A stretch of DNA of 32,133 nt from a virus (lineage: Duplodnaviria > Heunggongvirae > Uroviricota > Caudoviricetes). Made by a program: the position numbers and the translations under genes. Numbering within the stretch: position 1 is the stretch's first letter; each line of letters begins with the position of its first letter. The stretch is taken from the IMG/VR virus record IMGVR_UViG_3300010261_000005, positions 1 through 32,133 of that record; one strand, given 5' to 3'. Below the pieces are notes generated by a model. It was not told the DNA's origin. It did not search any database and saw nothing but the letters and a program-made list of their open reading frames with translations. Below are positions 1-21,013 of this stretch, in pieces.

Positions 1-1385
1 CAAACCAACTCAAATCTTTTATTGCCGACCGCCAATTATGATTGTATTTAATGTCACTAGCTTTTTCCAGCCAAGCATCGCCCTGCCCTTCATCTTTTTC
101 AAAACCCAAAATACCCTCTCGCTGGAAAAACCCCCTATAAATAACAGGTGTAGCATAAGTTGTATTCTGTGAATTTTGGCAGATAAAATTATATATCCAG
201 AATGAATCTGGATAATAACTTAATGCAAATTTTATAGCATACGCACTGTAATAATTATTGAGCTTCATATCTTCCATCACCGCTCGCTGTATACAGCACC
301 ATAACTTATCGTGATCGTTCTGTTTGTTATAGCAAGCAAGTAACCACTCCAGGGCATTATGGCGACATTCCTGAAATTGTGCGTGCTGAGCAATGTTCTC
401 TGCTAAGTCGATTGCATGTTGTTGATCCTCTGGCGCAATATCCTCAATGCTGACATCACGGTAATCATCCCACCAAAGTAAGAGATCCATATATTCATGC
501 TCTTCGGCAGATAAGTGTTTACAGGTTGCTGAATCCAGCAATTCGGAGATTTCTTTATGCGAACCGCCCCAGCGTGGCATTCGAAACGGTATATATTCAA
601 CAAAAGGATAAAAAGTGTGAGGAAAAATAGTCAGGCAAACAGCAAGCCAATATTTTTGCCCGCCATCGTTATCATACTCAGGAAGTATATTGGGGCGAGG
701 CAAAACGGGGCATATTGCATCCTCAAACGAAAGTCCGGAATACGCCATCAACGCTTCCACTTCTTGCGGGGAGCGGCGGTGATAATTTTTCAGTGCGATC
801 ATTAATGGTATTCCTGCGACACTATCACCGTTAAGGTGTGCCGCCAGCCAGGCTGGCTGACCAAATACTTTTGAGTTGGTGCTGGTAAGTAATGCAGCCA
901 TCCATTGTCGTGGGTCACAATCAATTGCTTTAAGTGTAGCGATGACCATTTGTTCATTACATGCACCAGCACAAAGCCACATTGCATGTGTGGTATCATT
1001 TGCCCAGCCATAACTGCGATATAACCATGCACGGTGATTCCAGTATTGTGCTTCGGCAAGCCAGGCATGTGTAGAATGAGGTCTTGCTTGCTGCCAGGTT
1101 TTAATGAGTCTTAAACCTTCTGTTCCGGCATCAACTAGCGTGTTCATATCATAAAAATAGTTGCACATTTGGGTCCAGGATAAAAAATAGCGCTTTTCAG
1201 CCTGACGAGAAGTGAAACTCTCCTGTAATGCCTGGTTATAAATTTCATCTAGTTCCTGATAACGTTTTTCTTGTAACATATAAGGAATATTTGCGATTTG
1301 CCATTTTCTCTCAAGAGTATTAAGTGGCATTTTTTGGTCACACATCTTTTGCATTGCACTGAGTAAACGAGCATCCTGTTCCATA
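1..1385 (-). CDS. Hypothetical helical protein, C-terminus beyond window start (at least 461 aa)
   Basis: Hand translation of the minus strand gives an uninterrupted frame from ATG at 1385..1383 (MEQDARLLSAMQKM...) to position 1 with no stop; AAGGA RBS about 7 nt upstream. Absent from the ORF track, presumably because its stop lies outside the window. Start sits 10 nt after the stop of the upstream gene, so operon-like. Product not recognised. Confidence 0.6.
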
Positions 1386-1394
1386 GATATCCTT

Positions 1395-2111
1395 TTAATT
1401 AGGTTCAAAAATTTTAAATTCATTCCACGGCAATTTTTTCCAGTTACTGGATGGATCTTTCAACCATGCAGTGACTTCCTTTAAATCACGGTTCGCAGTG
1501 GCGACGGGTGTATCGTATATCATTAACCATTTTTGTCGGGCGCGAACATAAGCACTGGCATAATCTTCCCATGAAGCGAAACAATCTTGTGCTCTTTGAG
1601 CATTCAGTAATAACACTATCCAGGCCTGGTTTTCATCGCACCAGCCGAAACCGGCGATGCAACGAGTTAAAAAAGCAGTGCGCATACAGTCAAACGCCAG
1701 CGCATCCAGGACCTGGCCTTGTGCTGCCAGCTGTTCGTAAAAATCATGTGGAGAATTACCAAGCCCTGTAGCCCAGCGTTGTAATATAACGCCAATTTGT
1801 TGGTGGAAATCTTCGTTGCTTTGGTAAGTTTCTGTTCCTAACTCTTGTTTAACCTGTAGTGCAAGTTGTTGACGCTTATCATCAGTCAACTTTAAATCTA
1901 ACGTGAAGCCATTTACTGGCAGTCCATTACGACGAGCAACTATATCACCAATTGCTAATGCCCACTTACGTCTCTTTGTTGCTCGTCTTTTGTCCTTGAG
2001 TAGATCCTTTTCTTTTTCTTTAGCAAGAAAAGCATCGATTAGTGGTTTGTTTTTTTTGTATCTATAGATAAAAATAAATATTGCGACCAGGAGAACAATG
2101 ATAAGACTCAT
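1395..2111 (-). CDS. Hypothetical protein with N-terminal transmembrane helix, possibly DUF1266-like
   Basis: 238-aa ORF; N-terminus MSLIIVLLVAIFIFIYRYKKNK is a hydrophobic helix followed by a basic stretch. Start ATG overlaps the stop of the upstream 407-aa gene (TAATG). The DUF1266 assignment is from memory only. Confidence 0.55.
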   Translation of the reverse strand: MSLIIVLLVAIFIFIYRYKKNKPLIDAFLAKEKEKDLLKDKRRATKRRKWALAIGDIVARRNGLPVNGFTLDLKLTDDKRQQLALQVKQELGTETYQSNEDFHQQIGVILQRWATGLGNSPHDFYEQLAAQGQVLDALAFDCMRTAFLTRCIAGFGWCDENQAWIVLLLNAQRAQDCFASWEDYASAYVRARQKWLMIYDTPVATANRDLKEVTAWLKDPSSNWKKLPWNEFKIFEPN

Positions 2112-3334
2112 TATTTTTTAACCTCTGACAGGGGTAAGTAATGAGATGTCTGTAATGTCAAACTCTCTATCTCAAAGGAAATATTGCTGATATTTTGACC
2201 TGCAAATTGCGGATGCCACTCAGCGCCAGGGAATAACATTTCCGCAGAAGTAGCAACTATAGGGTCAATAGCATTAAGATAATGTAACTTATCAGGTGCG
2301 CTGTGTAACAGTAACCACTGCAACTCCACCGAAGGAGTTGCAAAGTGTTCTAATAAATGAAAGTTATTATGTAGTACACTTAGTAAGAAACTGGTTTCGT
2401 ATACTTCCGTTACATATTTCCACCCCTGATGCTCCGGTGTATTTTCATAAACAATACCCATACCTTCACAATCACTATGTCGAACTGCTTGTGGTGACAA
2501 CATCTGCAAAAGAGATAAAACATTGTCCGCATATTTTTTTACTGGATGACGATTTTGCTTACCTTTTATTTGATCAATTTTCAGTGAATCACCGATAACA
2601 TTAAGGGCAATAGTAACATGAGGAATATTATTGTTATCACGCAAACTGAATAACCGTAATTTATGTTGCTCAATTTGATTTGCATAATACTCGCCATAAC
2701 CACCGGTAAGATTTTTTCGATCATCAAACTGACCTACACAATGTTGCATATGCCATGATTCATAAGCCATCTCACGACGAAGGTTCGAATGACTGGCATC
2801 AAACTCAACAACTTTTCCGTCTGGCACATCAAGTATTAACTTTACGGTATTTTGTTCACTCGGTTGCCACCCTTTCTCGCGCCGTTGAAGCATTTTTTCA
2901 TGCTCTTCTTCACGCATTCTGAATGCGGCGTAGCAGGTTATGCGCTGTAGTTTTGATTCCAGACGGGTACCACATTTCCTGGAAAGAAATTCCACCAACT
3001 CTCGTTCTTTGGTTAATATTTGTTGATGATCGGTTTCGATATAATAAACTGTCGAAGTTGATACTGAGGCATTATTAAACTTCGATACCAGCCATTCCGG
3101 GAGTACATCATCATTTTTATTAAACAGTGAATATTCTGCTAGCGAGTTAATCTGTTGCGCCATTGGAAAGTCACTAATTAGCCATCGATAAAAATGGTTC
3201 AGCAACCATTTTTGGATGGTCTCATTATCCTGGCGACACAGACTTCTTTGCAAAATTGCTGTTTTTACTTCCGGGGCATTGATTACATCCCTTGCATTAT
3301 AATTTTGGTGAATATTCCCATTCATAACATCCAT
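2111..3334 (-). CDS. Hypothetical protein (407 aa), first gene of a three-gene minus-strand operon
   Basis: Long ORF with an AT-rich 5' intergenic region (3335..3549); translationally coupled to the next gene. No family recognised. Confidence 0.55.
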   Translation of the reverse strand: MDVMNGNIHQNYNARDVINAPEVKTAILQRSLCRQDNETIQKWLLNHFYRWLISDFPMAQQINSLAEYSLFNKNDDVLPEWLVSKFNNASVSTSTVYYIETDHQQILTKERELVEFLSRKCGTRLESKLQRITCYAAFRMREEEHEKMLQRREKGWQPSEQNTVKLILDVPDGKVVEFDASHSNLRREMAYESWHMQHCVGQFDDRKNLTGGYGEYYANQIEQHKLRLFSLRDNNNIPHVTIALNVIGDSLKIDQIKGKQNRHPVKKYADNVLSLLQMLSPQAVRHSDCEGMGIVYENTPEHQGWKYVTEVYETSFLLSVLHNNFHLLEHFATPSVELQWLLLHSAPDKLHYLNAIDPIVATSAEMLFPGAEWHPQFAGQNISNISFEIESLTLQTSHYLPLSEVKK

Positions 3335-3812
3335 CCGTGTTTATTATATCACTCAAGAAAATAATTAATGAATATAGATTTTTTATCTAAATCATCATGG
3401 TTGCAGGTACATACTCAAGTAAGCCACTCTAGAAAATAACGTAAACTCAATAGTGGCAACGTCACAAACTTTGAAAGTTATGTCTTATATTTGCAGTTTC
3501 TTTTAGTGAATAACTGAGATAAATGAAATTATTTTACATCCTCAATGATTCAGGCTGCAAGAGGACGGCAAATATATTCATAATTATCAGGGGATGAGCA
3601 TTCAGGAAAGTGGTCAATATCGTCAACTTTCTCTGTTATCACTACATGAAGATTTCGTGCAGGTACTCCCTTCTCTGCCACTTGCCCCCTCACATTTACA
3701 CTGGAGCCAACCCCGCCGATTGCGCTACAATGCCCGCCCTTAAAGTGGGGGCACTCCCCTAACCGCTTCATCAGGTGAAGCGGATCTGACCTGTCATCAG
3801 AACGAGAGAATT

Positions 3813-5174
3813 ATGTTTAAACCGGAACTCCTTTCCCCGGCGGGAACGCTGAAAAATATGCGTTACGCTTTCGCTTATGGCGCGGATGCTGTTTATGCGG
3901 GCCAGCCACGTTACTCCCTGCGTGTGCGCAACAACGAATTCAACCACGAAAATCTTCAGCTCGGCATCAATGAAGCCCACGCGCTGGGGAAAAAGTTTTA
4001 TGTCGTGGTCAACATTGCACCGCACAACGCCAAGCTGAAAACCTTTATTCGTGACCTGAAACCGGTGGTGGAAATGGGGCCGGATGCGCTGATTATGTCC
4101 GATCCAGGGCTGATTATGCTGGTGCGTGAACACTTCCCGGAAATGCCAATCCACCTCTCGGTACAGGCTAACGCCGTAAACTGGGCGACGGTGAAATTCT
4201 GGCAGCAAATGGGTCTGACCCGCGTGATCCTCTCTCGCGAACTGTCACTGGAAGAGATTGAAGAGATCCGCAATCAGGTGCCGGATATGGAGATCGAAAT
4301 CTTCGTTCACGGCGCGCTGTGCATGGCCTACTCCGGTCGCTGCCTGCTCTCTGGCTATATCAACAAGCGCGACCCGAACCAGGGCACCTGCACCAACGCC
4401 TGCCGCTGGGAGTACAACGTCCAGGAAGGGAAAGAAGATGACGTCGGCAACATCGTACACAAGTACGAGCCGATTCCGGTGCAAAATGTTGAGCCGACGC
4501 TGGGTATCGGCGCGCCAACCGACAAAGTGTTTATGATCGAAGAAGCCCAGCGTCCGGGCGAGTATATGACCGCGTTTGAAGATGAGCACGGCACTTACAT
4601 CATGAACTCGAAAGATCTGCGCGCCATCGCCCATGTTGAACGCCTGACCAAAATGGGCGTGCATTCGCTGAAAATCGAAGGCCGTACCAAATCTTTCTAC
4701 TATTGCGCACGCACCGCGCAGGTTTACCGTAAAGCTATCGATGACGCCGCTGCGGGCAAACCGTTCGATACCAGCCTGCTGGAAACGCTGGAAGGTCTGG
4801 CGCATCGTGGCTATACCGAAGGTTTCCTGCGTCGTCATACCCACGACGATTATCAGAACTACGAATACGGTTATTCGGTTTCTGACCGCCAGCAGTTTGT
4901 TGGTGAGTTTACCGGTGAGCGCAAGGGGGAGCTCGCGGCGGTAGCGGTGAAAAATAAATTCTCCGTTGGCGACAGCCTTGAGCTGATGACGCCGCAAGGC
5001 AACATTAACTTTACCCTTGAGCATATGGAAAACGCCAAAGGTGAAGCTATGCCGGTCGCACCAGGCGATGGTTATACTGTGTGGCTCCCGGTGCCGCAGG
5101 ATCTTGAGCTAAATTACGCGCTGCTGATGCGTAATTTCTCCGGGGAAACCACGCGTAACCCCCACGGTAAGTGA
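3813..5174 (+). CDS. yegQ: U32-family peptidase YegQ (TrhP, tRNA hydroxylation)
   Basis: 453-aa ORF, MFKPELLSPAGTLKNMRYAFAYGADAVYAGQPRYSLRVRNNEF..., recognised as E. coli YegQ including length; GAGAG RBS upstream of ATG. Confidence 0.9.
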   Translation: MFKPELLSPAGTLKNMRYAFAYGADAVYAGQPRYSLRVRNNEFNHENLQLGINEAHALGKKFYVVVNIAPHNAKLKTFIRDLKPVVEMGPDALIMSDPGLIMLVREHFPEMPIHLSVQANAVNWATVKFWQQMGLTRVILSRELSLEEIEEIRNQVPDMEIEIFVHGALCMAYSGRCLLSGYINKRDPNQGTCTNACRWEYNVQEGKEDDVGNIVHKYEPIPVQNVEPTLGIGAPTDKVFMIEEAQRPGEYMTAFEDEHGTYIMNSKDLRAIAHVERLTKMGVHSLKIEGRTKSFYYCARTAQVYRKAIDDAAAGKPFDTSLLETLEGLAHRGYTEGFLRRHTHDDYQNYEYGYSVSDRQQFVGEFTGERKGELAAVAVKNKFSVGDSLELMTPQGNINFTLEHMENAKGEAMPVAPGDGYTVWLPVPQDLELNYALLMRNFSGETTRNPHGK

Positions 5175-5258
5175 TTAATTTCGATTATTTTTCCCGGATG
5201 GAAAATTCTTAGAAACCGATCACATACAGCTGCATTTATTAAGGTTATCATCCGTTTC

Positions 5259-5345
5259 GCTGAAAAACATAACCCATAAAATGCTAGCTGTACCAGGAAC
5301 CACCTCCTTAGCCTGTGTAATCTCCCTTACACGGGCTTATTTTTT
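5259..5345 (+). ncRNA. cyaR: CyaR (RyeE) Hfq-dependent small RNA
   Basis: Sequence gctgaaaaacataacccataaaatgctagctgtaccaggaaccacctccttagcctgtgtaatctcccttacacgggcttatttttt matches the E. coli CyaR sequence as I recall it. Ends in a terminator hairpin (cctgtgtaa / ttacacggg) plus T6. A -10-like TATCAT lies about 8 nt upstream of the 5' end, and a TCACA CRP half-site at about 5220..5224. Confidence 0.8.
5319..5345. other. P2 attachment core (prophage/chromosome junction, locI-type) within the 3' end of cyaR
   Basis: aatctcccttacacgggcttatttttt is the reverse complement of the 27-nt P2 att core AAAAAATAAGCCCGTGTAAGGGAGATT as I recall it. It lies between chromosomal cyaR and phage ogr, the expected junction for a P2 prophage. 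Confidence 0.65.
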
Positions 5346-5409
5346 ACGCGTAATTCAATGAAATAAAAGGATTTATTTCTGGTCACGTCCACACATTGAC
5401 CACATCGAC

Positions 5410-5445
5410 AAAAAAAGCCCCTCGACTGAGGGGCTTTCTGTTTGT
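5410..5445. terminator. Bidirectional rho-independent terminator between cyaR and ogr
   Basis: aaaaaaa-GCCCCTC-gact-GAGGGGC-tttctgttt: 7-bp GC stem flanked by an A-run on one side and a T-rich run on the other; 3 nt downstream of the ogr stop. Confidence 0.6.
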
Positions 5446-5447
5446 AA

Positions 5448-5747: not shown

Positions 5748-6911
5748 TCACTCATCATCTTCTGTTTCGTACTCCACATCAGAAAGCCTGACCTCAAGCT
5801 CTAAGGACGTCGTGAAGCCGCTATTATTCAGAAAATGTGTCACCTTAGTGATTGTCCAGTCCTGCTCGTCTATGACGCGCTTAAAGCCTGACACTTTAAC
5901 CGGTGTTTCCGTGTAAATATCTGCCCGACCGGTAGCCAGGCTGATGGAGAACTCCGCCACACCCCGTTGCAGTTTATCCCACTTCGCCTGAGCGGCGCGC
6001 ATGGCCTGCGCTTTTGTGGCATATACCGTGGTCAGGGCAAAAACATTGTCAGCCTCACCGGCCATGTATTCACCTTCGCGCGCTTCCGGTACTTTTGGCG
6101 CTTTCTTCTGCGTGACCGGTTTCGCTTTCGGGTGCTCCAGTGCGCGCAGGTGTTTCTCTTTCTTTTTGCGTTTCAGTTTTACCTTCTGCTTTTGCGGCTT
6201 CGGGTCTTTGGTGTGAAGCCACTTTGCCGTTACGCCGGTATAGGCTCCACGGTCAGCAATCGCAAAATGATGACGGTCGCCGTCGCTGCGGGTGATGATG
6301 ACCTGCGGAATTTTCTTACCGCTGGCCGTCACCCCCTGCCCCGCCTTAAGAAACAACAGTTTTCCCATTTTTACCGAGACCTCACCGCCGTTGCGTTCTG
6401 CAAGACGGGTCAGGAATTTCGCATCAGACTCCTGCGACTGGTCGATGTGCGGGATTTTAATTCCGGCCAGTGACGGAGCGACACTGGCTTCCAGTCTGTT
6501 ACGGGAGGCTATCGCCTCAACAATCGCACCGAGCGTGGTGTCATGCCAGGAGCCTTCACGGCGGGAATTGAGCGTCCCGCGAAAATCTGCACTCCGGGCG
6601 CGGATGGTAACCACATCCGGCGCGCCCCGGTGTTCAACCTCATCAACGGTAAATTTCCCTTTGCATACCAGGGCAAAACCTTTCCAGCCGATATACACCG
6701 TCAGGACAGCGCCACGAACCGGCAGCCCGACCTGCCCGTCGGCATCGTTCAGTTCAATATCAAGCTGGTCAGCCTCAAAGCCCCGGTTATCCGTCAGGGT
6801 CATGCTCATCAGACGGTCGCTGATATTGCCGGTAATATCCCTGCTGTCGAGCATCAGCATGTAATCCGGCGTCAGCGTACTGCCTGCATCAAATGTCAGT
6901 GCATCCAGCAT
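5748..6911 (-). CDS. D: Tail protein D (late control gene D)
   Basis: 387 aa, same length as P2 gpD; lysine-rich central linker (KQKVKLKRKKKEK). Confidence 0.9.
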   Translation of the reverse strand: MLDALTFDAGSTLTPDYMLMLDSRDITGNISDRLMSMTLTDNRGFEADQLDIELNDADGQVGLPVRGAVLTVYIGWKGFALVCKGKFTVDEVEHRGAPDVVTIRARSADFRGTLNSRREGSWHDTTLGAIVEAIASRNRLEASVAPSLAGIKIPHIDQSQESDAKFLTRLAERNGGEVSVKMGKLLFLKAGQGVTASGKKIPQVIITRSDGDRHHFAIADRGAYTGVTAKWLHTKDPKPQKQKVKLKRKKKEKHLRALEHPKAKPVTQKKAPKVPEAREGEYMAGEADNVFALTTVYATKAQAMRAAQAKWDKLQRGVAEFSISLATGRADIYTETPVKVSGFKRVIDEQDWTITKVTHFLNNSGFTTSLELEVRLSDVEYETEDDE

Positions 6912-7390
6912 TATCCCGCCCCCGTCATACCCGTGAATTTAGTCGCCATACTGCCAGCCTTACCGATGAGCGATTCCGCCTGTTTACCGATATCGCCATA
7001 AAGCGCGGCCAGTGATTCATCAACGCGGGTGAGCGACAGCGTAAAATCAATTTTCCGGGGTGTGCCGTCTGCAAAGAAAATACTCCCTGTTTCACTCACC
7101 TTGCTGATGACATACATGCCGTAAATCATGCCGGTGCCATCCAGCAACGGCCACGACCGGCCTTCATCTGCCATCAGCCTGAGCGTGGTCATCGTCAGCT
7201 TTCCGCCGGTCAGTTCGGGATAAAGCACACCGGCAAGCGTCATGTTTTCCTCGCCAACACCGAGAAACTGGTAGGCATCCCGTTTACCGATACGGGAATT
7301 TGACGGCCAGCGATAATCTGATTCACGCTGCATGGTCTGGTGTGGCAGCGTCTGGCGCATAAAAACAAACATACCTAACGCGAGCATCAT
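6911..7390 (-). CDS. U: Tail protein U
   Basis: 159 aa, matches P2 gpU in length and position; stop overlaps D start. Confidence 0.9.
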   Translation of the reverse strand: MMLALGMFVFMRQTLPHQTMQRESDYRWPSNSRIGKRDAYQFLGVGEENMTLAGVLYPELTGGKLTMTTLRLMADEGRSWPLLDGTGMIYGMYVISKVSETGSIFFADGTPRKIDFTLSLTRVDESLAALYGDIGKQAESLIGKAGSMATKFTGMTGAG

Positions 7391-7404
7391 TTTTCGTCAC
7401 CTCC

Positions 7405-9852
7405 TTAACCGTCATGCATCATGCTGGCACGGGCGCGCGCACGTTTATCCCGCTCGTATTTTTCGAGCGCATCCTGTAACTGGCGGTCGAGCTGTGTCCC
7501 CGGCGCAGTACCACCCGTCAGGCTGATGTGATATTCGTTTTTACTCTGGTCTACATAAGAGCGGCCAGCCGGTGCCGTGACCGGCTGATAAGCCTGATAA
7601 CCTGCATAAGAGCTGGTCGCCGGAATATAACCACCGCTGCCATACGTGGCGGCTTGAGTTCTGGCGGCGGTCTGGTCAAGTGTGTCTGACTCTTTGTTGA
7701 TGACACCGAGTTTTTCCAGTACCCAGTCAATACCACTGCGCAGTTTGTTGAACGCATTAAGCGGCAGCATCAGCGCGTCAGCCAGTGCCTGCCCGAACAT
7801 GACGCCCGTGTCACGGCAACGGTTCAGGGTGTCCTGGGTGGCTTTGACCGGGGCAATCAGGTTTTTAAACCACTGCCACGCGGCCTGTAACTTTTCACCC
7901 AGCCAGTCAAACACCGGTTTAAGTGGCGTGAACAGTTCCCCCACCGGCGCAAATGCCGCTTTCAGCCCTTCCACCACACCGCCAAAGAATGCGCTGACAG
8001 GCTCCCAGTATTTACGGATAAGCAACGCCCCGGCGACAATTGCAGCCACCACGGCCACAACCGGCCAGCTAATCGCCCCGATGGCCGTCATAACGGCACT
8101 ACCAACAGTCGTGAAGATTGCCCCCATTGCGCCTGCTGCCGCGATGATGGCATTGATGCCGGTGATAACCGGCCAGGCTACGAGGCCAATGGCACCGATG
8201 ACACCAGTCAGCGCCAGTGCACCACCGACAATGAGGCCGATGGTTGACGCCAGTGATTTGTTTTTCTGGATCCAGCCGTCGAGTTTTAACACATACTTTG
8301 TGGCCGTCTGCGTGAGATTACGCAGTGCGCCTTCCTGCTGGTCAAACAGGTCAGTCCCCACCGCTTCATAAGCGGACTGAAACTCCTTAAAGTCACCGCC
8401 GAGGTTATCCTGCATGATTTTAACCAGCTCTTCCGTTTTACCGTCCGAGGCTTTCAGCGTGGCGGTCAGCTTATCCAGTTTTCCGCTTGCTGCCGCTGCC
8501 AGTAAAACGTTCGCTGATTTCAGGGCTTCCTCACCAAAAATGGTTTTAAGGTATTCCCCCTTCTGAGACGTTCCCAGCTTATGCTTATCAAAGCTGGCCT
8601 GAATCTCTTTCAGAATGGTGAACAACGGACGCATATTCCCCTTTTTGTCCGAGGTTTTAACGCCAAGCTCTTTGAGTGCATCCCATGCTTTTCCAGTCGG
8701 TGCCTGTAATCGGGTGACAACGGCACTGCTACCCGTACCCGCCATTGACCCCCTGATGTTATTGTCATGCAGCACACCGGTCATGGCCGCTGCCTGCTCA
8801 AGACTTACACCTGCCGTCCTCGCAACCGGGCCGAGGTAAGTCAGTGCATCACTGAGTCCCTGAAAATCAGCCGCCGACTTATTCATCGTTGCCGACAACA
8901 CGTCGCCCACATGGCTGACATCATCATTTGACAGTTGAAAGGATGCCTTAGTCCCCAGCAACAATTGCGCGTTTTCTTCCATCGACCGCTGGTTTGCCAG
9001 TGCCATATTCAGTGTGACCGGCGTTGCTGCCTGAATAGCCGCAGCATCTCCACCCGCTTTCGCAATGATAATCTGTGCACCGGCTGCATCATCTGCCGAG
9101 GCTGCGGTATTGTCGCCGAGCTGGCGCGCCTGCTTGCGGAGTGCGGTCATTTCGGCGGAGTCTTTTGCCACACTCAGCACGGCCTGCAATTCTGAGTTTT
9201 TCTGCGCAAACTCATAGCCGGGCATCAGCAGCTTAACTCCGGCCATCGTTCCCGCCGCCGCAATCCCCACACCGGCAGCGCCCACCGAGGCCATATTTCC
9301 GGCCAGTTCCTTGCCTGCCTGATAACGCTGTTTGACTGCGTTAAGTTTTGCCTGTTGCGCACTGACACGCGCCAGCGCGTCACGCTGCCGGTTAAGCTGT
9401 GCGGTGGTTTCACTGATACGGTTTTTCAGCCCTCGTTCATCATGCGCCAGATTACGGGTATTAATACCCGCCTGACTCAATTCCTGACGCTGGCGCTGTA
9501 CCGACAATCTCAGGCTGTTATATTTCGCCTGTAACTCAGACGCATTTTTACGCGCGGCTTCCATTGCCTTTGCCTGTGCATTTGTCGGTCGTTCAGTATT
9601 TTTAAACTGGACAGCCAGAGCTGCGGCTTCCTGTCTGGCTTTTTTCAGTTCCTGACCAGTCACGGCGAGCTGTGCACTGGTCTTGCGGAATCCCTCAATA
9701 CGGGATGCGTGACCGTTCAGCTCGCGCAGTGATTTTTGTGTTTCCCGGATATCCCCCGACAGCGACTTACTCGCTGTACGGATGGATTTAAACGGGCGGG
9801 ATGCCTGGTCAACAGCCCTGAGCAATACCTGTAATTTTACATTGTTACTCAT
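7405..9852 (-). CDS. T: Tail tape measure protein T
   Basis: 815 aa, P2 gpT length; coiled-coil N-terminus, hydrophobic Gly/Ala-rich central segment, position after E/E'. Confidence 0.9.
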   Translation of the reverse strand: MSNNVKLQVLLRAVDQASRPFKSIRTASKSLSGDIRETQKSLRELNGHASRIEGFRKTSAQLAVTGQELKKARQEAAALAVQFKNTERPTNAQAKAMEAARKNASELQAKYNSLRLSVQRQRQELSQAGINTRNLAHDERGLKNRISETTAQLNRQRDALARVSAQQAKLNAVKQRYQAGKELAGNMASVGAAGVGIAAAGTMAGVKLLMPGYEFAQKNSELQAVLSVAKDSAEMTALRKQARQLGDNTAASADDAAGAQIIIAKAGGDAAAIQAATPVTLNMALANQRSMEENAQLLLGTKASFQLSNDDVSHVGDVLSATMNKSAADFQGLSDALTYLGPVARTAGVSLEQAAAMTGVLHDNNIRGSMAGTGSSAVVTRLQAPTGKAWDALKELGVKTSDKKGNMRPLFTILKEIQASFDKHKLGTSQKGEYLKTIFGEEALKSANVLLAAAASGKLDKLTATLKASDGKTEELVKIMQDNLGGDFKEFQSAYEAVGTDLFDQQEGALRNLTQTATKYVLKLDGWIQKNKSLASTIGLIVGGALALTGVIGAIGLVAWPVITGINAIIAAAGAMGAIFTTVGSAVMTAIGAISWPVVAVVAAIVAGALLIRKYWEPVSAFFGGVVEGLKAAFAPVGELFTPLKPVFDWLGEKLQAAWQWFKNLIAPVKATQDTLNRCRDTGVMFGQALADALMLPLNAFNKLRSGIDWVLEKLGVINKESDTLDQTAARTQAATYGSGGYIPATSSYAGYQAYQPVTAPAGRSYVDQSKNEYHISLTGGTAPGTQLDRQLQDALEKYERDKRARARASMMHDG

Positions 9853-10272
9853 TCGTGTTTCCGCTTCGCCGGAGCGCCTTTTCGCGCCATGTGATGAGTT
9901 CGGTCAGGCTCATGGGATACAGTTCTGATGGCGGCCAGTGAAATATCACTGCCACATCCGCCATCAGGTCATCGACCGAGAGATTTTTCGGAAACGTCAC
10001 TGCACCGAGTTCGGCGACAAAAAACCGACCACCTTACCGGCCAGCGCCACAAGGTCAGGCAGTTCCAGTGCGGCGACTTCCTGCTCGGTCAGCATCGGTG
10101 CAGTCATGCGCGGCAGCACCTTAATCAGTGCATCGACTTCGGAGTTCGCGACCGCAGCCAGACTGACACCGCGCAGCGTCCCGGCGTTAGGTTTCATCAG
10201 CGTGACCTGTTCGATAACCTGCTCACCACGTTTGACCGGATTGTCCAGGGTAATGACGTTTTCTTTGTTCAT
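9845..10272 (-). CDS. E': Tail assembly chaperone E+E' (programmed -1 frameshift product, about 142 aa)
   Basis: Zero-frame codons GGT TTT TTG (Gly83-Phe84-Leu85) give a T TTT TTG slippery heptamer at 10024..10018 (minus strand). Hand translation of the -1 frame from 10018 reads VAELGAVTFPKNLSVDDLMADVAVIFHWPPSELYPMSLTELITWREKALRRSGNTNE and stops at TAA 9847..9845, overlapping the T start. 85 + 57 = 142 aa, the P2 E+E' length. Confidence 0.75.
9997..10272 (-). CDS. E: Tail assembly chaperone E
   Basis: 91 aa, matches P2 gpE; contains the slippery site near its 3' end. Confidence 0.9.
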   Translation of the reverse strand: MNKENVITLDNPVKRGEQVIEQVTLMKPNAGTLRGVSLAAVANSEVDALIKVLPRMTAPMLTEQEVAALELPDLVALAGKVVGFLSPNSVQ

Positions 10273-10328
10273 GGTTTTCTCACTTCTGAATCGGGGTTAA
10301 CCGGTCAGCCAGGCTGACCGGATGACAA

Positions 10329-10847
10329 TTACAGGCCGATATTGCGGCGGTGTTGCTCCAGCCGGTCGACGCCGTTCACCTTCTCAATCATGTTGATGGT
10401 GTCGATTTCGACCAGCTCCTTACCGTCCATCGTCAGCCGGAAATAGGTGCAGACCACGGAGATTTTCGACTCGGTGTCTTCTCCCTGTTTACCCTCGCCG
10501 GTGTCGATTTCTTTCTGACGTCCACGCATGACCACCTCGACGGCTACCGTTTCGCCGGTATCGTCGCGCTGGTAAGAGCCTGCAAAACGAATCGGCACGG
10601 CATCCACACCGGTTGCGGCGTAAAGCTCCCAGATAACCGAATCCGGGAAGCCCCCGAGCGACCACTCCATTGACAGCGCATCGTCATCAAGGCCGAGGTC
10701 TACCGGTGCGCTGCCGTTCATCCCCGCACCGCGATAGTTTTCGAGCTTACGGGTCAGTTTTGGCAGCGTGACGGACTTTGCAACGCCCTGATAGCTGTAG
10801 CCGTTCAGAAAGACGTTCATTAACTTGAGTTTGCGCGGCATTGCCAT
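10329..10847 (-). CDS. FII: Tail tube protein FII
   Basis: 172 aa, P2 gpFII length and position. Confidence 0.9.
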   Translation of the reverse strand: MAMPRKLKLMNVFLNGYSYQGVAKSVTLPKLTRKLENYRGAGMNGSAPVDLGLDDDALSMEWSLGGFPDSVIWELYAATGVDAVPIRFAGSYQRDDTGETVAVEVVMRGRQKEIDTGEGKQGEDTESKISVVCTYFRLTMDGKELVEIDTINMIEKVNGVDRLEQHRRNIGL

Positions 10848-10859
10848 CGGTCAGGCTCC

Positions 10860-12050
10860 TTAATTGCTGTTAACCGAAGTGACCAGATTTGCCAGGTATT
10901 TATCGGTAATACGCTGGCGTAGGGTCAGGTTTTCAAGAGGAGGCACCGGTGTATAGTCGTAGTCGATATACAGTTTTCCGGCCTTGAGGGTTTCCGCATC
11001 GTTGGATTCTTCGCTGAACCAGCAGGTCGCATCCACGATATAGCCGTTTGTTTTCAGCTCACGGAATTTGGCATTGATGCCGTCAACGATGTCGCGAATC
11101 AGCGTTGCAGTGATGGGCTTGTCCACCGCCCACATGTGCGCCTCAGCCATCGTGTCGGCCAGCACCTGCGCGGTGCGGGTGTAGTTTTCAAAGAGGAACA
11201 GCGGGTCATCAGAGCAGGTACGGTTACCCCAGAAGCGGAAACCGTCACGGCGAATCAGCGTTGTGACACCTGACTCGTTCAACAGGTCAGCATCGGTGCC
11301 GGACTCCTGCAAATCCCAGAATACAGAGGCACTGATGCCGGTAACACCGTTTACCCCGACGTTGGACAGCGTTTTATGCCAGCCCTGCTCCTGGTCGATT
11401 TTTGCACGCAGACCCAGCGCACGGGCGGTGGCATACGCGGTGGCGGTGGTACTGGTGACCGTATCCCATGCGAGGAAATCCGGCCAGATAACCATCAGTT
11501 CACGCTGGCTGAAATTCTGGCGGTAGGCTTTCACCTCAGAAATGGTTTTACAGCCCCATGCGCTGATATACCCGAAAGCGCGCAGCTTCTGACAGACTGA
11601 TGCCAGTGCGACGGCAACCTCTTTGGTGTCCAGTCCCGGCACACCGAGAATGCGCGGCTTAACACCGGTTACCGACTCCGCCGCCAGCAGGGCTTTCAGT
11701 CCGGTGTACTGACCGTTTTCGTCAGTGGTGCCGATGATATTGGAAACGGTCTGCGCGAGTTTCGTTTCCTCGTCGTCGCCGGTGCCGTCTTCCACACGCA
11801 CGACAACGGTGACCGGTTTTGACTGGTCGGCGATGGCCTGCAACGATGCCGCCAGCGTGCCTTTTTTACCGGCCTTTGCAATTGCGCTCTGCACATTGGT
11901 AATCAGCACCGGTTTATTGAGGGGGAAGGTTTCCGCATCCGCATCGCTGGCCGTGCAGACCATGCCGACAATGGCCGTGGATACAGTGGAAATGACGCGG
12001 GTGCCGTCGTTAATCTCCAGCACCTGCACGCCATGATGATAGTCACTCAT
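10860..12050 (-). CDS. FI: Contractile tail sheath protein FI
   Basis: 396 aa, P2 gpFI length and position. Confidence 0.9.
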   Translation of the reverse strand: MSDYHHGVQVLEINDGTRVISTVSTAIVGMVCTASDADAETFPLNKPVLITNVQSAIAKAGKKGTLAASLQAIADQSKPVTVVVRVEDGTGDDEETKLAQTVSNIIGTTDENGQYTGLKALLAAESVTGVKPRILGVPGLDTKEVAVALASVCQKLRAFGYISAWGCKTISEVKAYRQNFSQRELMVIWPDFLAWDTVTSTTATAYATARALGLRAKIDQEQGWHKTLSNVGVNGVTGISASVFWDLQESGTDADLLNESGVTTLIRRDGFRFWGNRTCSDDPLFLFENYTRTAQVLADTMAEAHMWAVDKPITATLIRDIVDGINAKFRELKTNGYIVDATCWFSEESNDAETLKAGKLYIDYDYTPVPPLENLTLRQRITDKYLANLVTSVNSN

Positions 12051-13381: not shown

Positions 13382-13909
13382 TTATTGCGGCATTTCCGGC
13401 CATTCAGGATTTGCAGGATCCACACGGCTGACCAGAACACTGTAGCGTTCCCATGCTTCCAGTCGGCTACGCTCCTCATCTGTTGCCATGTTCAGCCTGA
13501 CAGCGCGCTCCAGTGGCTGAATAACGCTTTCCGCTTCGGAAAGTAACGCGGCCTTTTGTGATTCTGCCTGTTGTTGCTGTTCGTCTGCCGTATAAATCCG
13601 CTTAATCACGGCACCATCCTTAAACATCCATTTACCTGAGTCATCAGCACGTCGGTTGGCGGTAATATCAGGAACCTCGACAACGCTAAAACCTTCAGGG
13701 TTGAGCGTTGAAGCATCTCTGGTGATGCCGACAATTATATTATTCTCATCGTAAACAATCTTTATCGTGTCTTCCTGAAAATTACTTACTTCCTCATACC
13801 AGTTTTTTCCCTCTTCGGACCATAACCAGATAACATCAAAATTTTTTGTCAGTTGATATTGGGCAACAGTTTTTGGATTACCCGCAGTAATATTTTTTAA
13901 ATGCTGCAT
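13382..13909 (-). CDS. G: Tail fiber assembly protein G
   Basis: 175 aa, matches P2 gpG (MQHLKNI...[11 protein letters not shown]). Confidence 0.85.
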
Positions 13910-13912
13910 AAA

Positions 13913-16648
13913 TTACACCTGTGCGACGTTATACCATGTGCCATTGATGTATTTTTGTATTGGTCTGAATACTGCGGGGTCATCACCATCGACTTCACCG
14001 ACAATACCAAGCCCGGTAATTACGTGCCCTGCTTTCTCATACATCACCCCTTTCTGCATGGTCTGGACAACACGTGTGCCAAGTCTGACATCTCTCACAT
14101 AGCGGGAATCAAAGTTACCGTAATCCGAGGGATTAACACGCCCCGTAATATTTATGGTTTTATTACTTTGAACGCTTCCGGAGACAAAGCGCATAACATG
14201 GACGCTATTAGCATAAACATCCAGATTACCATCACCATTTTGTTTAAAGCCCGTGTCATTATCACCCAAAACAATCGAATTACCGCCAAGAGCACTGGAT
14301 GTTCCTATACCCAGAGCACCATTCAATTGACCACCAGATAACGGCAGTGCACCGACATCTCCCGCTGTAGGTTTTCGCGTTGTGGTATAAAACTCAGACC
14401 AGTCAGCCTCGAATCCGTAACCGTCACGAGCAGAACGATAAAAAATACCACCGTTCTTATAATTAACGCGAAACTGGGCGGCGGGACAACTTCCTTCACC
14501 GATATTAAAATGAAGAATTAACGTTGATGCCCCACCAATAGTTGCGTTATAGGCTCCGCTACTCCAGTTCCATCCAACGGCTTTATCATTCGCAACAGTG
14601 TCTCCTGTTTTTCCTGAAGCAAATGCACCAATATTTTTCGGCGTCAGGTTAATATCTGATGTTCCATCAAACGAAACGTTATTAATTTTACGGGCTGTTT
14701 TCAGCTTTGTTGCTGTCGCCGCATTGCCGGACAGTTCACCAGAAAGGCCAGCACTGAATGTCTGTTTCGCGCCCCATGTCTGGGCTTCGTCAATGATTGG
14801 TACTCGTCTTGTTGTGATCGTGCGGCTTCCCGGATTTCCTGAAATGCGCACCATAAAAAAGCGGTAGTTGGCTTTACTTACAGTGCTGCGCCATACATGC
14901 ATTGAGCGCCCCGTACCGGAATCATCACTCGGACCAACTGCGATGTTTATCAGGTTGCCATCAATGACGCCCCAGTCCATACCGTCGGGAATGTTGGTCA
15001 TGTTATCAAGCCGAACGGTTATCAGACTGCCCGGCACAAAGTCGTGGGTCTGCCAGTCCAGGCTGGTGAGCTTTGCCACTGCACCGCCGATACCCAGATT
15101 CAGGGGAAGTGAATACGAGGTGTAGACTTCCCGCCATTCGCTCCACGAGCTGCCGGTATAGACGCGCTCAAACGTGCGACCTTTAAGGGTTGCACCTGTT
15201 CCGGCAGTTGTATAACGCTGCCATACGTTAACACCATCAAAGCGCCTCAACACTTCCAGAATACCGAGGACTGTCACGCCGTTTCCGTCCAGTACTGGAC
15301 CGTTGGTCGCTTTACCTGTAACGCTGTAAATACCTGGTGAAGTCACATCATTCAAATCCCCGTCGTAATAACGACTCTCTGACTGATGACCGACTCTTAA
15401 CCACGGTTCCCACTGCGGATTTGATGCATCCCAGCTTGCCGCAAGGCAGCGGACATACATATTTCCACGGCGAGTGGTATAACGTTGCGTTCTTCCATAA
15501 TTCCCGCCTTCGAGGATCTCAAGCGTCCCCTGAGCAAAGCCGCCTTCCTCTGGATAATTGCGTTCATATGAAGCTATAGCCGAGCTACTGTTACGCCATA
15601 AACCAAGATGTTCGGCGGCTCCAAGCGTATTCAGGTCTATAGTCGTACTCAAAGGGCGGGTAGCTGATTGAGTGTGACGCCATACGCCCCATGGACCATC
15701 AGTACCATTCCACTTATTGGCGAGTTTACGCATGTATACATTGCCGTCTCTCGTGATAAAGCGTTGCGTGCCTGCAAAATTGCCGGCAGCAAAAACCTCA
15801 AGCACACCGACAGCATTATCTTCCGGGAAATTTTTCTCCAGTGTTGCGTTAGTTGAGGTAGCTTTAGACCAGATCCCCAGATAAGCCTTAACTGGACCAA
15901 ATGTATTCAGATCAGCATCAACCGGCATTTCGCCGTTGTTTTTCATAAACGTCAGGCTGGTAACGCCAACATTGTCCAGAAAAGCTGATTTATCCTGGAT
16001 ATCTGCACCGTTCTGATTTTTCGCCAGACGTGAATTTGCGTTGTCATTCGCAGCCTTGACCGCTTTTGGCGTTGCCGCCAGTTTTTCACTGGTGCTGTTT
16101 GTTGCGCTGCTTAACTGGGTAAAACCTTTTTCTGTCAGCGTAGCGTCAGGATGGCGGCGGGACTGCTCATGTTCTGCGATTTTGTCATCGACGTAATCCT
16201 GCGTCGCCATCACTGTGCTGGCATCAATACTCAGCTCAACGGACGCCACGTTACTGACAATAATAACCATGCGGCAGGTCTGCGCACGCCCGGAGCCTTC
16301 AGCGAGTTCAGGCTTATAGCTTTCTGCCATGTTGGCGACCGCAATCAGTGTTCCGGCATCGTCATACAGACCAAGCTCACGCATCCAGAAGCCGCCCACT
16401 TCGGGCGGTACAACCAGTTCAGCCACGATATAGTTTTTATTCTTGTTATCCACGCTGACTTTATTCAGAGCGTGACGCCAGACCTCATGCACCAGTTTCG
16501 TCTGACCGGCATCCGGCACCGGCAATTTGCCATTACCGTCACCCACGGCCATTGCAGACAGGGTTACTTTTTTCCCGCCGGGGACAGTGGCGGCTGCCAG
16601 CTTTGCGGCTCCGGCAGTAGTGATAACGGTTTTAAATTTCGTGCTCAT
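13913..16648 (-). CDS. H: Tail fiber protein H (extended variant, 911 aa)
   Basis: N-terminus MSTKFKTVITTAGAAKLAAATVPGGKK... is P2 gpH-like. The protein is much longer than P2 gpH (669 aa) and carries internal repeat modules (GTQRFITRDGNVYMR / GRTQRYTTRRGNMYVR / NVWQRYTTAGTGATLKGRTFERVY). Confidence 0.9.
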   Translation of the reverse strand: MSTKFKTVITTAGAAKLAAATVPGGKKVTLSAMAVGDGNGKLPVPDAGQTKLVHEVWRHALNKVSVDNKNKNYIVAELVVPPEVGGFWMRELGLYDDAGTLIAVANMAESYKPELAEGSGRAQTCRMVIIVSNVASVELSIDASTVMATQDYVDDKIAEHEQSRRHPDATLTEKGFTQLSSATNSTSEKLAATPKAVKAANDNANSRLAKNQNGADIQDKSAFLDNVGVTSLTFMKNNGEMPVDADLNTFGPVKAYLGIWSKATSTNATLEKNFPEDNAVGVLEVFAAGNFAGTQRFITRDGNVYMRKLANKWNGTDGPWGVWRHTQSATRPLSTTIDLNTLGAAEHLGLWRNSSSAIASYERNYPEEGGFAQGTLEILEGGNYGRTQRYTTRRGNMYVRCLAASWDASNPQWEPWLRVGHQSESRYYDGDLNDVTSPGIYSVTGKATNGPVLDGNGVTVLGILEVLRRFDGVNVWQRYTTAGTGATLKGRTFERVYTGSSWSEWREVYTSYSLPLNLGIGGAVAKLTSLDWQTHDFVPGSLITVRLDNMTNIPDGMDWGVIDGNLINIAVGPSDDSGTGRSMHVWRSTVSKANYRFFMVRISGNPGSRTITTRRVPIIDEAQTWGAKQTFSAGLSGELSGNAATATKLKTARKINNVSFDGTSDINLTPKNIGAFASGKTGDTVANDKAVGWNWSSGAYNATIGGASTLILHFNIGEGSCPAAQFRVNYKNGGIFYRSARDGYGFEADWSEFYTTTRKPTAGDVGALPLSGGQLNGALGIGTSSALGGNSIVLGDNDTGFKQNGDGNLDVYANSVHVMRFVSGSVQSNKTINITGRVNPSDYGNFDSRYVRDVRLGTRVVQTMQKGVMYEKAGHVITGLGIVGEVDGDDPAVFRPIQKYINGTWYNVAQV

Positions 16649-16658
16649 TGTTTCTCAC

Positions 16659-17189
16659 TTATCCGGGATAAACAGTAATAACATCACCATCACAGACCAC
16701 ACCGCCTGTATACAGACAGCCGGGAATGTCCTGGATAATGTTCAGACCGATAAGGTGGCGACTTGCGGGTTTGGCATCGGCAATAAGCCGTTCCATTTCC
16801 AGATACATCTCCTCCGTGATGCCGCTTTCCAGCACACCGATATCAAGGCGAAAGGTTCCGGGCGGGTCGTTTGTCTCCCACCATTCCTTTACGTTAATGA
16901 GATAGCCGAGCGGCTCCACCACACGCCGGATTGCGCCTATAGTGCCCTTATGGCAGTGAATGAAATACGCATCGCGGATAACGGCGCGTTTTGTTGCTTC
17001 CGGCCACTTTTCATCCCACCTGTCGACCGAAAACGCCCACGCCAGCCACGGCAGCAGATTTGCCGGGCAGGTGTCCGGGTTCCACAGCTCACGAATACTG
17101 ACCGGCGTTTTTTCAATTTCCGCACAGGCTTTTGCGGCGGCAACTTCAAGCGGTGAAGAGCCAGTCGGCAGCAGTCGCGAATCACTCAT
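16659..17189 (-). CDS. I: Baseplate assembly protein I
   Basis: 176 aa, P2 gpI length and position. Confidence 0.9.
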   Translation of the reverse strand: MSDSRLLPTGSSPLEVAAAKACAEIEKTPVSIRELWNPDTCPANLLPWLAWAFSVDRWDEKWPEATKRAVIRDAYFIHCHKGTIGAIRRVVEPLGYLINVKEWWETNDPPGTFRLDIGVLESGITEEMYLEMERLIADAKPASRHLIGLNIIQDIPGCLYTGGVVCDGDVITVYPG

Positions 17190-18090
17190 CCGAGCCTCCG
17201 GTCACGACGCTGTATTCGGTGCAGAAAGACGCCTGCGTACTGTTGAGCACAATGTCGGCCAGTGGTGCGGCCAGCTCGACACGCTGCACGCCTTCCACAT
17301 GCAAAGCGGCATAAATGGCAGACAGACGGATGTCACGCCCCAGCCGGTGCTGTGCCGTGATGTACGCTTCCAGTTTTTTCACGGCAGCAGCGCGAATGGG
17401 TTCGCTTTCGGGACCAGGGTAAAGGTAAAGCGTGGCGTTTATCTGGTATTCAACAATGGCGGCAGACTGCACGGTCACGCGGTCGGCCACCGGCCTGACG
17501 TCCTCGCCATTAAGGGCGTTACGCACCACGGCCAGCAGGTCTTCGGATGCGACGCCGTTATTTTCACGTGACAGCACAGAGATAGTGACGCAGGCCGGAG
17601 ACGGACTGGTGACAGAGATATCCGCGACACGCCCGTCGGCACTGCGGCCATGATACTGATAGGCACCCACCGACCCGGCGACGCTTAAACCTTCAAACGC
17701 CTGCTGAATACGCAGCCGATAATCGGTGTCAGACTCCATCACTGCCGGTGTCGGCGGGATGGTCGAATCATCTGCCGGGGTGACAATCAGACGTGTGGTG
17801 TTGTAATTGGCACCAATCACATCAAGGTCATTACCGGCAGCACAGGCCAGCATCACCGCCCGTGCTGCCTCATTCACACGCTGACGCCAGATAAGCTCAC
17901 GATAAGCATTTTCCTCCAGCAGTTTGACGATAGGCTCAGATTCCAGCGTCAGGGTACGGGAAACCGCCTCCTGCTGGTCTTCCGGGTAAAGAGAAATCAG
18001 TGTCGCCTTGCGTTCGGCAAGAATGGTTTCAAAGTCCAGCTCCTCGACCACATCCGGTGCGGGTAGCTGGTTCAGGTCGATAATCGGCAT
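17182..18090 (-). CDS. J: Baseplate protein J
   Basis: 302 aa, P2 gpJ length and position; 8-nt overlap with I. Confidence 0.9.
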   Translation of the reverse strand: MPIIDLNQLPAPDVVEELDFETILAERKATLISLYPEDQQEAVSRTLTLESEPIVKLLEENAYRELIWRQRVNEAARAVMLACAAGNDLDVIGANYNTTRLIVTPADDSTIPPTPAVMESDTDYRLRIQQAFEGLSVAGSVGAYQYHGRSADGRVADISVTSPSPACVTISVLSRENNGVASEDLLAVVRNALNGEDVRPVADRVTVQSAAIVEYQINATLYLYPGPESEPIRAAAVKKLEAYITAQHRLGRDIRLSAIYAALHVEGVQRVELAAPLADIVLNSTQASFCTEYSVVTGGSDE

Positions 18091-18094
18091 GGTT

Positions 18095-18442
18095 TCAACT
18101 CACAGGGATGGTTAACGAAAGTGGCTGGCCGGTGTCGTTGTGCTGGCCGGTTAACGTGACCGTCATTCGCCCGTCAAAACTGCGCTCAGTGGTGACGGAT
18201 GACAGGGTGACGCGGGGTTCCCATTTCAGCACCGCCATGTAACAGGCGACCTTAATCTGCAACTCAAGCGCCGGGGTCTGCGGCTGGTCAATCATTGATG
18301 CCAGCAACGAGCCGTAATCACGACGCATCACCCGTGAGCCGACCGGTGTGCGCAGGATATCGCCGATACTCTGGCTGATATGCTCAAGGTCAGTGACAGT
18401 CAGGCCATCACTGCGATTCATTCCGAGATAACGCGCTGTCAT
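18095..18442 (-). CDS. W: Baseplate protein W
   Basis: 115 aa, P2 gpW length and position. Confidence 0.9.
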   Translation of the reverse strand: MTARYLGMNRSDGLTVTDLEHISQSIGDILRTPVGSRVMRRDYGSLLASMIDQPQTPALELQIKVACYMAVLKWEPRVTLSSVTTERSFDGRMTVTLTGQHNDTGQPLSLTIPVS

Positions 18443-19074
18443 AGAGGACTCCCGGTTGTGCCGCCGCTGTCGCCGGGGTGTTTATGGGTATGCAGTACCT
18501 TCCCGTTTGATGAGAGTTCACCACCGGTATGTTCAATGTTGCCGCGCATCGTCCCGCCCTTCTGCACTTCCAGCGTGCCGGTAATCAGCCTGTTGGTGCA
18601 GACCACCTCCGGTGTGTCCAGGGTGACGCGGGTTGATGCTTTCACCATGACCACCGGCACCGTGGCAGTAACAGAATCAGAAGCCGTCACGCTGGCCGTT
18701 TTAATTCCGCTTACCGTCAGAGCACTGGTTTCGGGTTCATACTCAATCACCGCCCCGTCAGGGAAACGGATATGCAGGGCATCCGCCGACGCAGACGGCG
18801 GAGGGTTATCGCCGGAATAAATCCCCGGCAGAACGAACGCCGTGTCGAGTTCACCGCCCACGGCCAGAATCAGCACCTGCTCCCCCACGGAAGGTGCCCA
18901 CCATGTGCGCGAACGTCCTGCGCGATGGGTCAGCCACTGAAGCCAGTCGGTGCACATGCCGCCGGTCTGCACGCGGCAGCGACCGGCGTTAAGGTCGGTT
19001 TCGACGATAATGCCGGTGCGAATCATGTTGCGCAGTGCGCGCGCGAGTTCCTGAATATTTGCGAGAGTGTTCAT
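18439..19074 (-). CDS. V: Baseplate spike protein V
   Basis: 211 aa, P2 gpV length and position; overlaps W start by 4 nt. Confidence 0.9.
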   Translation of the reverse strand: MNTLANIQELARALRNMIRTGIIVETDLNAGRCRVQTGGMCTDWLQWLTHRAGRSRTWWAPSVGEQVLILAVGGELDTAFVLPGIYSGDNPPPSASADALHIRFPDGAVIEYEPETSALTVSGIKTASVTASDSVTATVPVVMVKASTRVTLDTPEVVCTNRLITGTLEVQKGGTMRGNIEHTGGELSSNGKVLHTHKHPGDSGGTTGSPL

Positions 19075-19140
19075 AACGGGAAGGATGCCGCCGGGTCATA
19101 CCGGCGGCAATGTGACGATGAGGTGTCAGGAATGGCACAA

Positions 19141-19593
19141 CTAACGGTCGAGGTGAGCCAGAATAATCTCTTCAATCATCTGCACATCCTCACCGGTAAA
19201 GCCGAGCAGAGGACGCGCCGGATAATCAATTTTCTTACCGTCTTTCCGGGTTTCTTCCGACAGACCGAACTGATGCACACTGGCGATTTTCGGCGACTTC
19301 CCGCCGTAAAATTCCATTGATGCCTGTTCCGGGCTGGCGCGGATATGCAAAAAACGACTGGTGATAAGTTTCGCAAACATTTTTCGCTTAACACGACCGG
19401 TCTTTTTTCTGGCGCTCTGCTGCTGGCGTGGCGCATAGGGTGTGCCGTCCGGGGCTTTCTGTGCCATCACCCGACGCTGCTGGTTCTGCCGCAGACGCTT
19501 CGCCAGTTCGGCGCTCAGTCGCCGACGCCCTGACGGTGACAGCGATTCAGTCAGTCCGGTCAGCCGGTCTTCAAAACGCTTAAACTCATTCAT
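19141..19593 (-). CDS. S: Tail completion protein S
   Basis: 150 aa, P2 gpS length and position. Confidence 0.9.
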   Translation of the reverse strand: MNEFKRFEDRLTGLTESLSPSGRRRLSAELAKRLRQNQQRRVMAQKAPDGTPYAPRQQQSARKKTGRVKRKMFAKLITSRFLHIRASPEQASMEFYGGKSPKIASVHQFGLSEETRKDGKKIDYPARPLLGFTGEDVQMIEEIILAHLDR

Positions 19594-20056: not shown

Positions 20057-20306
20057 TTTCGTCCTGACAGTGTTTAATCATTTTTACCTGGCTGGCACAG
20101 CGTGCCAGCGCGTTCTCAAGCTGCCGGATATCGGCACTTAAATCGCCGTTCGTCTCCGGGTCACTGCCCGGCATCGGGCAAAGACTCACTTTCGGGCAGG
20201 CGTTGTGGACAATCACTGGCGTCGGTGCAGGCCGGGCGCTGGTGCAACCGGCGCACAGCATCAGGCAGGTCAGCACCGTACCAGCGGCGAAAATCTTCGT
20301 TTTCAT
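20016..20306 (-). CDS. lysC: LysC (Rz1-like outer-membrane spanin lipoprotein)
   Basis: 96-aa ORF in an alternative frame spanning the 3' part of lysB and the 5' end of R; signal peptide with lipobox-like LCAGCTS; P2 lysC is 96 aa. Confidence 0.8.
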   Translation of the reverse strand: MKTKIFAAGTVLTCLMLCAGCTSARPAPTPVIVHNACPKVSLCPMPGSDPETNGDLSADIRQLENALARCASQVKMIKHCQDENDAQTRQPAQGAD

Positions 20307-20999: not shown

Positions 21000-21013
21000 G
21001 GTGTTTACTCCGT

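Follow-up and report, generated by a model that had tools for sequence, protein, structure and literature searches.

Where the bacterial sRNA gene cyaR meets phage DNA, at positions 5259-5447 of the 32,133-nt stretch of viral DNA analysed here (the window), two questions arise: whether a P2-type prophage was inserted by site-specific recombination exactly at the 3' end of the sRNA gene, as a sequence-only reading had proposed, and what such an insertion leaves of the gene. Our analysis makes us highly confident that 5259-5447 represents attR, the junction on the ogr side, of a prophage of the P2 type (Peduovirus) at the primary site of P2, with a core formed by the last 27 nt of cyaR. The coordinates of the features on both sides of the junction are compiled in the table.

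The assignment of the bacterial half of the junction starts from the only Rfam match that reached the gathering threshold in the whole window, the CyaR/RyeE family RF00112 on the plus strand (5257-5342), which was covered over model positions 1-85 of 85 with a score of 100.7 bits compared to a gathering score of 47 (E 3e-19). Mapping of the K-12 annotation onto the window placed the annotated 5' end of cyaR at 5259, in agreement with the start that the sequence-only reading had given. In the MG1655 annotation, cyaR lies directly 3' of trhP/yegQ. The gene has this conserved position in the window, too, where yegQ ends at 5174, and a rho-independent terminator was found at 5310-5345. The predicted fold of cyaR (-19.8 kcal/mol, z -3.0) comprises two small hairpins followed by the terminator, in which 5310-5320 pairs with 5327-5337. 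The terminator hairpin is followed by TATTTTTT up to 5345, and the tail ending at 5345 is given as UAUUUUUU. Together with 63 nt of the promoter region upstream of it, cyaR is identical in the window and in K-12. According to the literature as cited in PMC3333887, transcription of CyaR depends on CRP-cAMP and its regulation of targets such as ompX depends on Hfq.

The phage half of the junction was assigned by comparison with P2. In GenBank record AF063097, the P2 attP core AATCTCCCTTACACGGGCTTATTTTTT is annotated as misc_feature attP at 24356-24382. AATCTCCCTTACACGGGCTTATTTTTT occurs a single time in the window, at 5319-5345 and with 0 mismatches, and the number of matches expected by chance in dinucleotide shuffles was 0.00, even with 3 mismatches allowed. 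Homology between the window and the P2 genome, as detected by blastn, starts exactly at 5319, which is paired with P2 position 24382, and this fixes one exact boundary of the prophage at 5319. The proposal that the last 27 nt of cyaR coincide with the P2 att core was thus borne out by comparison with P2 attP, with the same att sequence at 27/27 positions. The further statement that this core includes the terminator stem and the U tract holds only in part: the loop and the U tract belong to the core together with the complete 3' arm, but the 11-nt 5' arm contributes only its last 2 nt, the first 9 nt being bacterial sequence that lies outside. As phage and host have the same core, the sequence of cyaR is unchanged in the lysogen, and since 0 differences were found over 150 nt spanning cyaR among the window, K-12 and the empty-site strain 95-3322, the claim that integration regenerates the 3' end of the sRNA holds as well. 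Consequently, cyaR is to be annotated as intact in this DNA.

By alignment to the annotated P2 record, 5346-5447 corresponds to the P2 P arm. The two predicted Int arm-type sites, TGTGGTCA and TGTGGACG when read on the minus strand, agree with tgTGGaCa, the consensus for Int arm sites of P2-type phages (PMC3448106). A core identical to that of P2, phage homology from the core onwards and the P arm next to it are the features by which this segment qualifies as attR.

Table. Features of the window and of the related genomes around the cyaR/P2 junction; coordinates refer to the window unless a genome is named.
Feature	Position	Strand	Evidence or remark
yegQ/trhP	3813-5174	+	453-aa ORF upstream of cyaR; named so in matching E. 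coli genomes
cyaR (ryeE) sRNA gene	5257-5345	+	Rfam match 5257-5342; K-12-equivalent gene (87 nt) 5259-5345
cyaR intrinsic terminator hairpin	5310-5337	+	Inverted repeat with 11-bp stem and 6-nt loop
att core, 27 nt, crossover region common to phage and host	5319-5345		27/27 match to P2 attP core
Putative IHF-binding site in the P arm	5344-5377		Ungapped alignment to AF063097 24324-24357
Predicted Int arm-type sites in the P arm	5381-5408		Identical to P2 'Int P arm' 24293-24320
Rho-independent terminator of ogr and the F operon	5414-5437	-	10-bp perfect hairpin; so annotated in P2
ogr, late-gene activator, 72 aa	5448-5666	-	72/72 identical to P2 Ogr; Pfam Ogr_Delta, E 2e-21
P2 F operon D, U, T, E/E', FII, FI	5748-12050	-	Full-length tblastn, 89-100% identity
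Cargo gene in the Z/fun slot, 259 aa	12451-13230	+	In place of P2 fun(Z); match to phrog_7729 only
Late genes G, H, I, J, W, V, S, R, lysC/B/A, K, Y, X, L, M, N, O	13382-25341	-	Full-length, 93-100% identity, H excepted
P (large terminase) and Q (portal)	25515-28321	+	99% identity to P2 gpP and gpQ
cos site (cohesive ends)	28494-28512		Meeting point of both ends of the linear P2 record
Cargo gene in the tin/old slot, 440 aa	28654-29976	-	In place of P2 orf91, tin and old; match to phrog_23812 only
Gene A, replication endonuclease	30060-32133	-	P2 gpA residues 66-755, 96% identity; cut by window end
Flank copy of the P-arm segment (outside the window)	L028 20513-20543; KE50 (L002) ~8233-8263; K-12 (L003) ~3349-3379	minus in KE50	yegR-side bacterial flank of the core

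For a comparison of all partners of the recombination, the core was examined at four att sites, each with 30 nt on either side. In attR, as present in the window, the core is flanked by the cyaR side on the left and by the P2 P arm on the right. attL, which was taken from the metagenomic relative L028 as a proxy genome, carries the P2 P' arm on the left and the yegR side on the right. attB of strain 95-3322, where no phage gene separates yegQ from its neighbour yegR, joins the cyaR side on the left to the yegR side on the right, and attP of the P2 record joins the P' arm to the P arm. With attL from the proxy genome, the four sites fit the Campbell permutation, in which the flanks are exchanged reciprocally, and an attB sequence reconstructed from the left half in the window and the right half in L028 was identical to strain 95-3322 at 300/300 positions. 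The repeat common to both junctions comprises the 27-nt core and one further A. The exact core, the P2 homology from 5319 and the permutation of the four att sites all support the proposed integration of a prophage at the 3' end of cyaR.

By analogy with P2, the phage tyrosine integrase Int and the host IHF would catalyze recombination of the attP core with the identical end of cyaR, and excision would additionally depend on Cox. After the exchange, the promoter, the body and the first 9 nt of the terminator stem of cyaR would be chromosomal, while the portion of the core that lies beyond the crossover point would be derived from the phage. Both cores being identical, the sRNA gene and its terminator would keep their sequence, and differences would begin only behind the U tract. 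The terminator of ogr and the F operon, which is located 68 nt away on the other strand, should stop late transcription that would otherwise run antisense into cyaR.

A second copy of the core was found in relatives and would be located beyond the window, which ends inside gene A; exact copies are present in L028, L022, L026 and strain KE50. The nearest relative, L028 (ENA metagenome assembly ERZ27241760), was found via an exact gpP protein match and differs from window positions 15515-32133 by 4 mismatches and no gaps over 16,619 nt. Beyond gene A, it contains orf83-80, B, orf78, cox, C and a gene for a 337-aa Int that is identical to P2 Int at 336/337 positions (99.7%). The second core of L028 is exact and located at 20471-20497, 79 nt after int, and is followed by yegR and yegS. 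Judging from L028, the int-side junction of the prophage in the window should lie next to yegR, approximately 3.85 kb past the window end, at ~35985-36011. The C repressor of L028 has 99 aa and is 65% identical to P2 C, and its Cox is 84% identical to that of P2. The 99-aa C repressor of P2-type phages does not belong to the SOS-cleavable class. From these comparisons, the phage in the window is probably heteroimmune with respect to P2 and, as is P2 itself, not inducible by the SOS response. Because the C repressor is not SOS-cleavable, mitomycin C would be a poor inducer for a P2-type prophage.

Among complete E. coli genomes, KE50 was the best match, with 98.9-99.4% identity (98.9% over window positions 3722-32133), and harbors a complete prophage between yegQ and yegR that is flanked by two exact cores. 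Its junction is identical to that of the window. No differences were found from 5049 to ~11000, followed by several blocks with 10-34 differences/kb. In the chromosomal part, 19 differences occur in 3761-5048 (yegQ), and the left flanks are unrelated, with an island encoding DUF4034, PcfJ and DUF1266 proteins in the window compared to yegP-baeR in KE50. Since KE50 and the window have the same junction in different chromosomal backgrounds, the insertion appears to be precise, repeated and site-specific. At the level of sequence comparison, the mosaic similarity to KE50 indicates recombination among P2-like prophages as well as independent arrival in different backgrounds. Exact protein matches of the 440-aa cargo protein and of Q led to prophages at other sites or with other cargo. 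Escherichia sp. MOD1-EC7003, which was the only match to the exact 91-nt signature among species-representative genomes, was rejected as a same-site relative: its prophage (6 mismatches/1786 nt) is located beside cpxP and lacks the P2 core.

The same locus is also occupied in K-12, where the order is cyaR, core, ogrK, a 219-nt D fragment (yegZ) and 19 nt of the second core, and the segment is annotated as 'cryptic prophage PR-X'. The statement in the sequence-only reading that only ogrK and yegZ remain there is therefore confirmed by the K-12 annotation. The junction of cyaR, P arm and ogr was detected in 1165/5426 complete E. coli genomes (~21%), and 727/5426 contained yegQ, cyaR, ogr and most of D in one piece. 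Because the junction genomes outnumber those with a contiguous D, several hundred remnants exist, and the difference fits remnants of the K-12 type. Accordingly, a P2-type element or its remnant occupies the cyaR site in about one fifth of complete E. coli genomes.

These numbers bear on the possibility that the element in the window is also truncated at its unseen end, resembling the K-12 remnant but larger, and constitutes a fixed defective prophage without integrase or a full second core. Such an end state is represented by K-12 itself, which has kept only ogrK, the yegZ fragment of D and 19 nt of the second core, and by the several hundred remnants that account for the difference between 1165 and 727 genomes; moreover, the window stops in gene A. 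However, the late genes and the portion of A inside the window are all intact, and the two nearest relatives with an insertion at this locus are complete and contain int and an exact second core, which makes truncation very unlikely in our view. A different history would be homologous recombination of an incoming P2-like phage with an older resident P2-type prophage or remnant, in which case the junction would have been inherited rather than made by Int. The mosaic similarity to KE50, with no differences from 5049 to ~11000 and 10-34 differences/kb in several blocks thereafter, is compatible with such an event, as are P2-like phages at other sites that have long near-identical segments in common. 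Yet the junction coincides exactly with the boundary of the core, all four att sites show a perfect permutation, and the mosaicism can equally predate integration. We consider this history unlikely; it alters the history of the element but not the identity of the junction.

A chance resemblance between the core and the end of cyaR, or an sRNA call that is an annotation artefact, has a practically negligible probability. Nothing was found in favor of either, and they were ruled out by the Rfam score, which is twice the cut-off, by the exact 27-nt match where 0.00 were expected in shuffled sequence, and by the four-site att comparison; the same junction is also present in 1165 genomes. Integration of a P2-type prophage into the core at the cyaR end is thus the reading that we follow.

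With its 27-nt core, the layout of the P arm and yegQ-cyaR and yegR as neighbours, the site corresponds to P2 attP and its primary site (locI) and to the K-12 remnant. It differs from P2 itself in that the DNA from the F operon to att is ~93% identical and in that H and the genes that occupy the Z/fun and tin/old slots are different, and the C repressor of the nearest relative, L028, is probably heteroimmune. In contrast to the K-12 remnant, the late region is complete here. Wphi2 of strain W, P2*B of strain B and the KE50 prophage have the same insertion site and are of the same prophage type, with single-base differences and cargo that are specific to the strain. Original work on the att sites of P2 and on ryeE includes Barreiro and Haggard-Ljungquist 1992, Wassarman 2001, and De Lay and Gottesman 2009. 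The arrangement of cyaR and P2 is already known and has entered textbooks, the literature and the MG1655 annotation. In E. coli, ryeE was described as a previously known phage target (Bobay et al., PMC3603311), and 'cyaR RNA' was listed as the insertion site of Wphi2 (P2) in strain W, of ogr-D' in K-12 and of P2*B in strain B (PMC3032704). The P2 attachment sites and the K-12 remnant were the subject of a 1992 paper, as cited in PMC3091744.

Similar to the integration of phages at the 3' ends of tRNA and tmRNA genes, such as 186 in tRNA-Ile or Fels-2 and SopE-phi in ssrA, integration at cyaR involves a tyrosine integrase and the 3' end of a structured RNA gene, which is kept intact because the segment displaced on integration has an identical counterpart in the phage (PMC3448106). 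The analogy that the sequence-only reading had drawn with integrases targeting tRNA genes is apt. Unlike in tRNA and tmRNA integration, the target is a regulatory sRNA of the Hfq type, and the common segment is short (27-28 nt) and restricted to the loop and 3' arm of the terminator and the U tract. As cyaR, the sole Rfam match in the window, is the target in place of a tRNA or tmRNA gene, integration at cyaR works like this class but is not a member of it. The locus hence represents a documented sRNA counterpart of tRNA-gene integration, which is confirmed here base by base and to which little is added that is new.

The prophage that follows the junction has the late region of a P2-like phage (Peduovirus). 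In tblastn searches, the P2 proteins from D to Q were found in P2 order and in full length, and all P2 late genes are present in order together with ogr and cos. The expectation of a fully intact late region was met by full-length alignments of 27 P2 late proteins in addition to Ogr, with H as a single 911-aa ORF; P2 orf30 was absent from the window in the tblastn search with P2 proteins. Of the P2-like early region, the window contains gpA residues 66-755, in a frame that is open through to the window end, and int, C, cox and B come from relatives only. The tail-fibre gene H (13913-16648, minus strand) encodes 911 aa compared to 669 in P2, and its likeness to P2 H is confined to 207 aa at the N terminus (85% identical) and 78 aa at the C terminus (77%). 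The middle of the protein, which binds the receptor, has thus been exchanged, and this suggests that the host range is different.

Neither the 259-aa nor the 440-aa cargo protein gave a match in Pfam, PADLOC, NCBIfam or PDB. The 440-aa protein, encoded between cos and gene A, has the RefSeq name 'HEPN domain-containing protein' and is widespread, being indexed in 1085 blocks of the sequence collection. Because its position is a known P2 slot for acquired genes, the 440-aa gene may be considered a candidate anti-phage gene. The 259-aa ORF, located between G and FI on the opposite strand, likewise occupies a known P2 slot for acquired genes (PMC3091744). Just before cos, at 28425-28460, we observed an 8-nt tandem repeat GCTGAGAC with approximately 4 copies, which differs from KE50 by one unit. 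The right end of the window (32133) falls inside the conserved gene A, and if it is a contig end, a second P2-like prophage may have broken the assembly; a second P2-like prophage in one genome was reported for strain W (PMC3032704).

The bacterial DNA on the other side of the site has a further feature. In the yegR-side flank of the core, a degenerate copy of approximately 30 nt of the Int-binding segment of the P arm (window 5378-5408) was detected, which reads CTGGTCACCGTCTTCCATTGACCACATCGA in KE50 and CTGGTAACC... in L028, compared to CTGGTCACGTCCACACATTGACCACATCGA in the phage. Its alignment score of 33-38 contrasts with 14.3 +/- 2.2 and a maximum of 27 in shuffled sequence, where 0/2000 shuffles scored as high. 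A description of this flank copy was not found in the literature cited here on the cyaR/P2 site. It is likely that the flank copy and the P-arm segment of the phage share true common descent. Since the flank copy is also present in empty sites, its sequence suggests that the 'empty' attB may itself be an old P2-type scar. That Int still binds to these remains of arm-type sites in the host flank, and that they contribute to making the site a preferred one, seems doubtful, and any function is speculative; they might also bias integration against excision. The neighbouring yegR, whose product looks like a lipoprotein, was considered as a phage gene in the position of ogr and rejected. Only two 'phage' records matched it, a prophage-derived one that also annotates YegR and the 2.4-kb Phage TP that also spans cyaR and ogr, and both were read as carrying host flank.

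On the opposite side of the prophage, to the left of yegQ, window positions 1-3721 encode a DUF1266 protein, a PcfJ-like protein and a protein with the RefSeq name DUF4034. This segment is without counterpart in the 45-kb KE50 region, is 100% identical to strains A37, GF130 and Q5, and is covered to at least 80% in only 298/5426 genomes. From this distribution, it appears to be a variable island next to the prophage hotspot.
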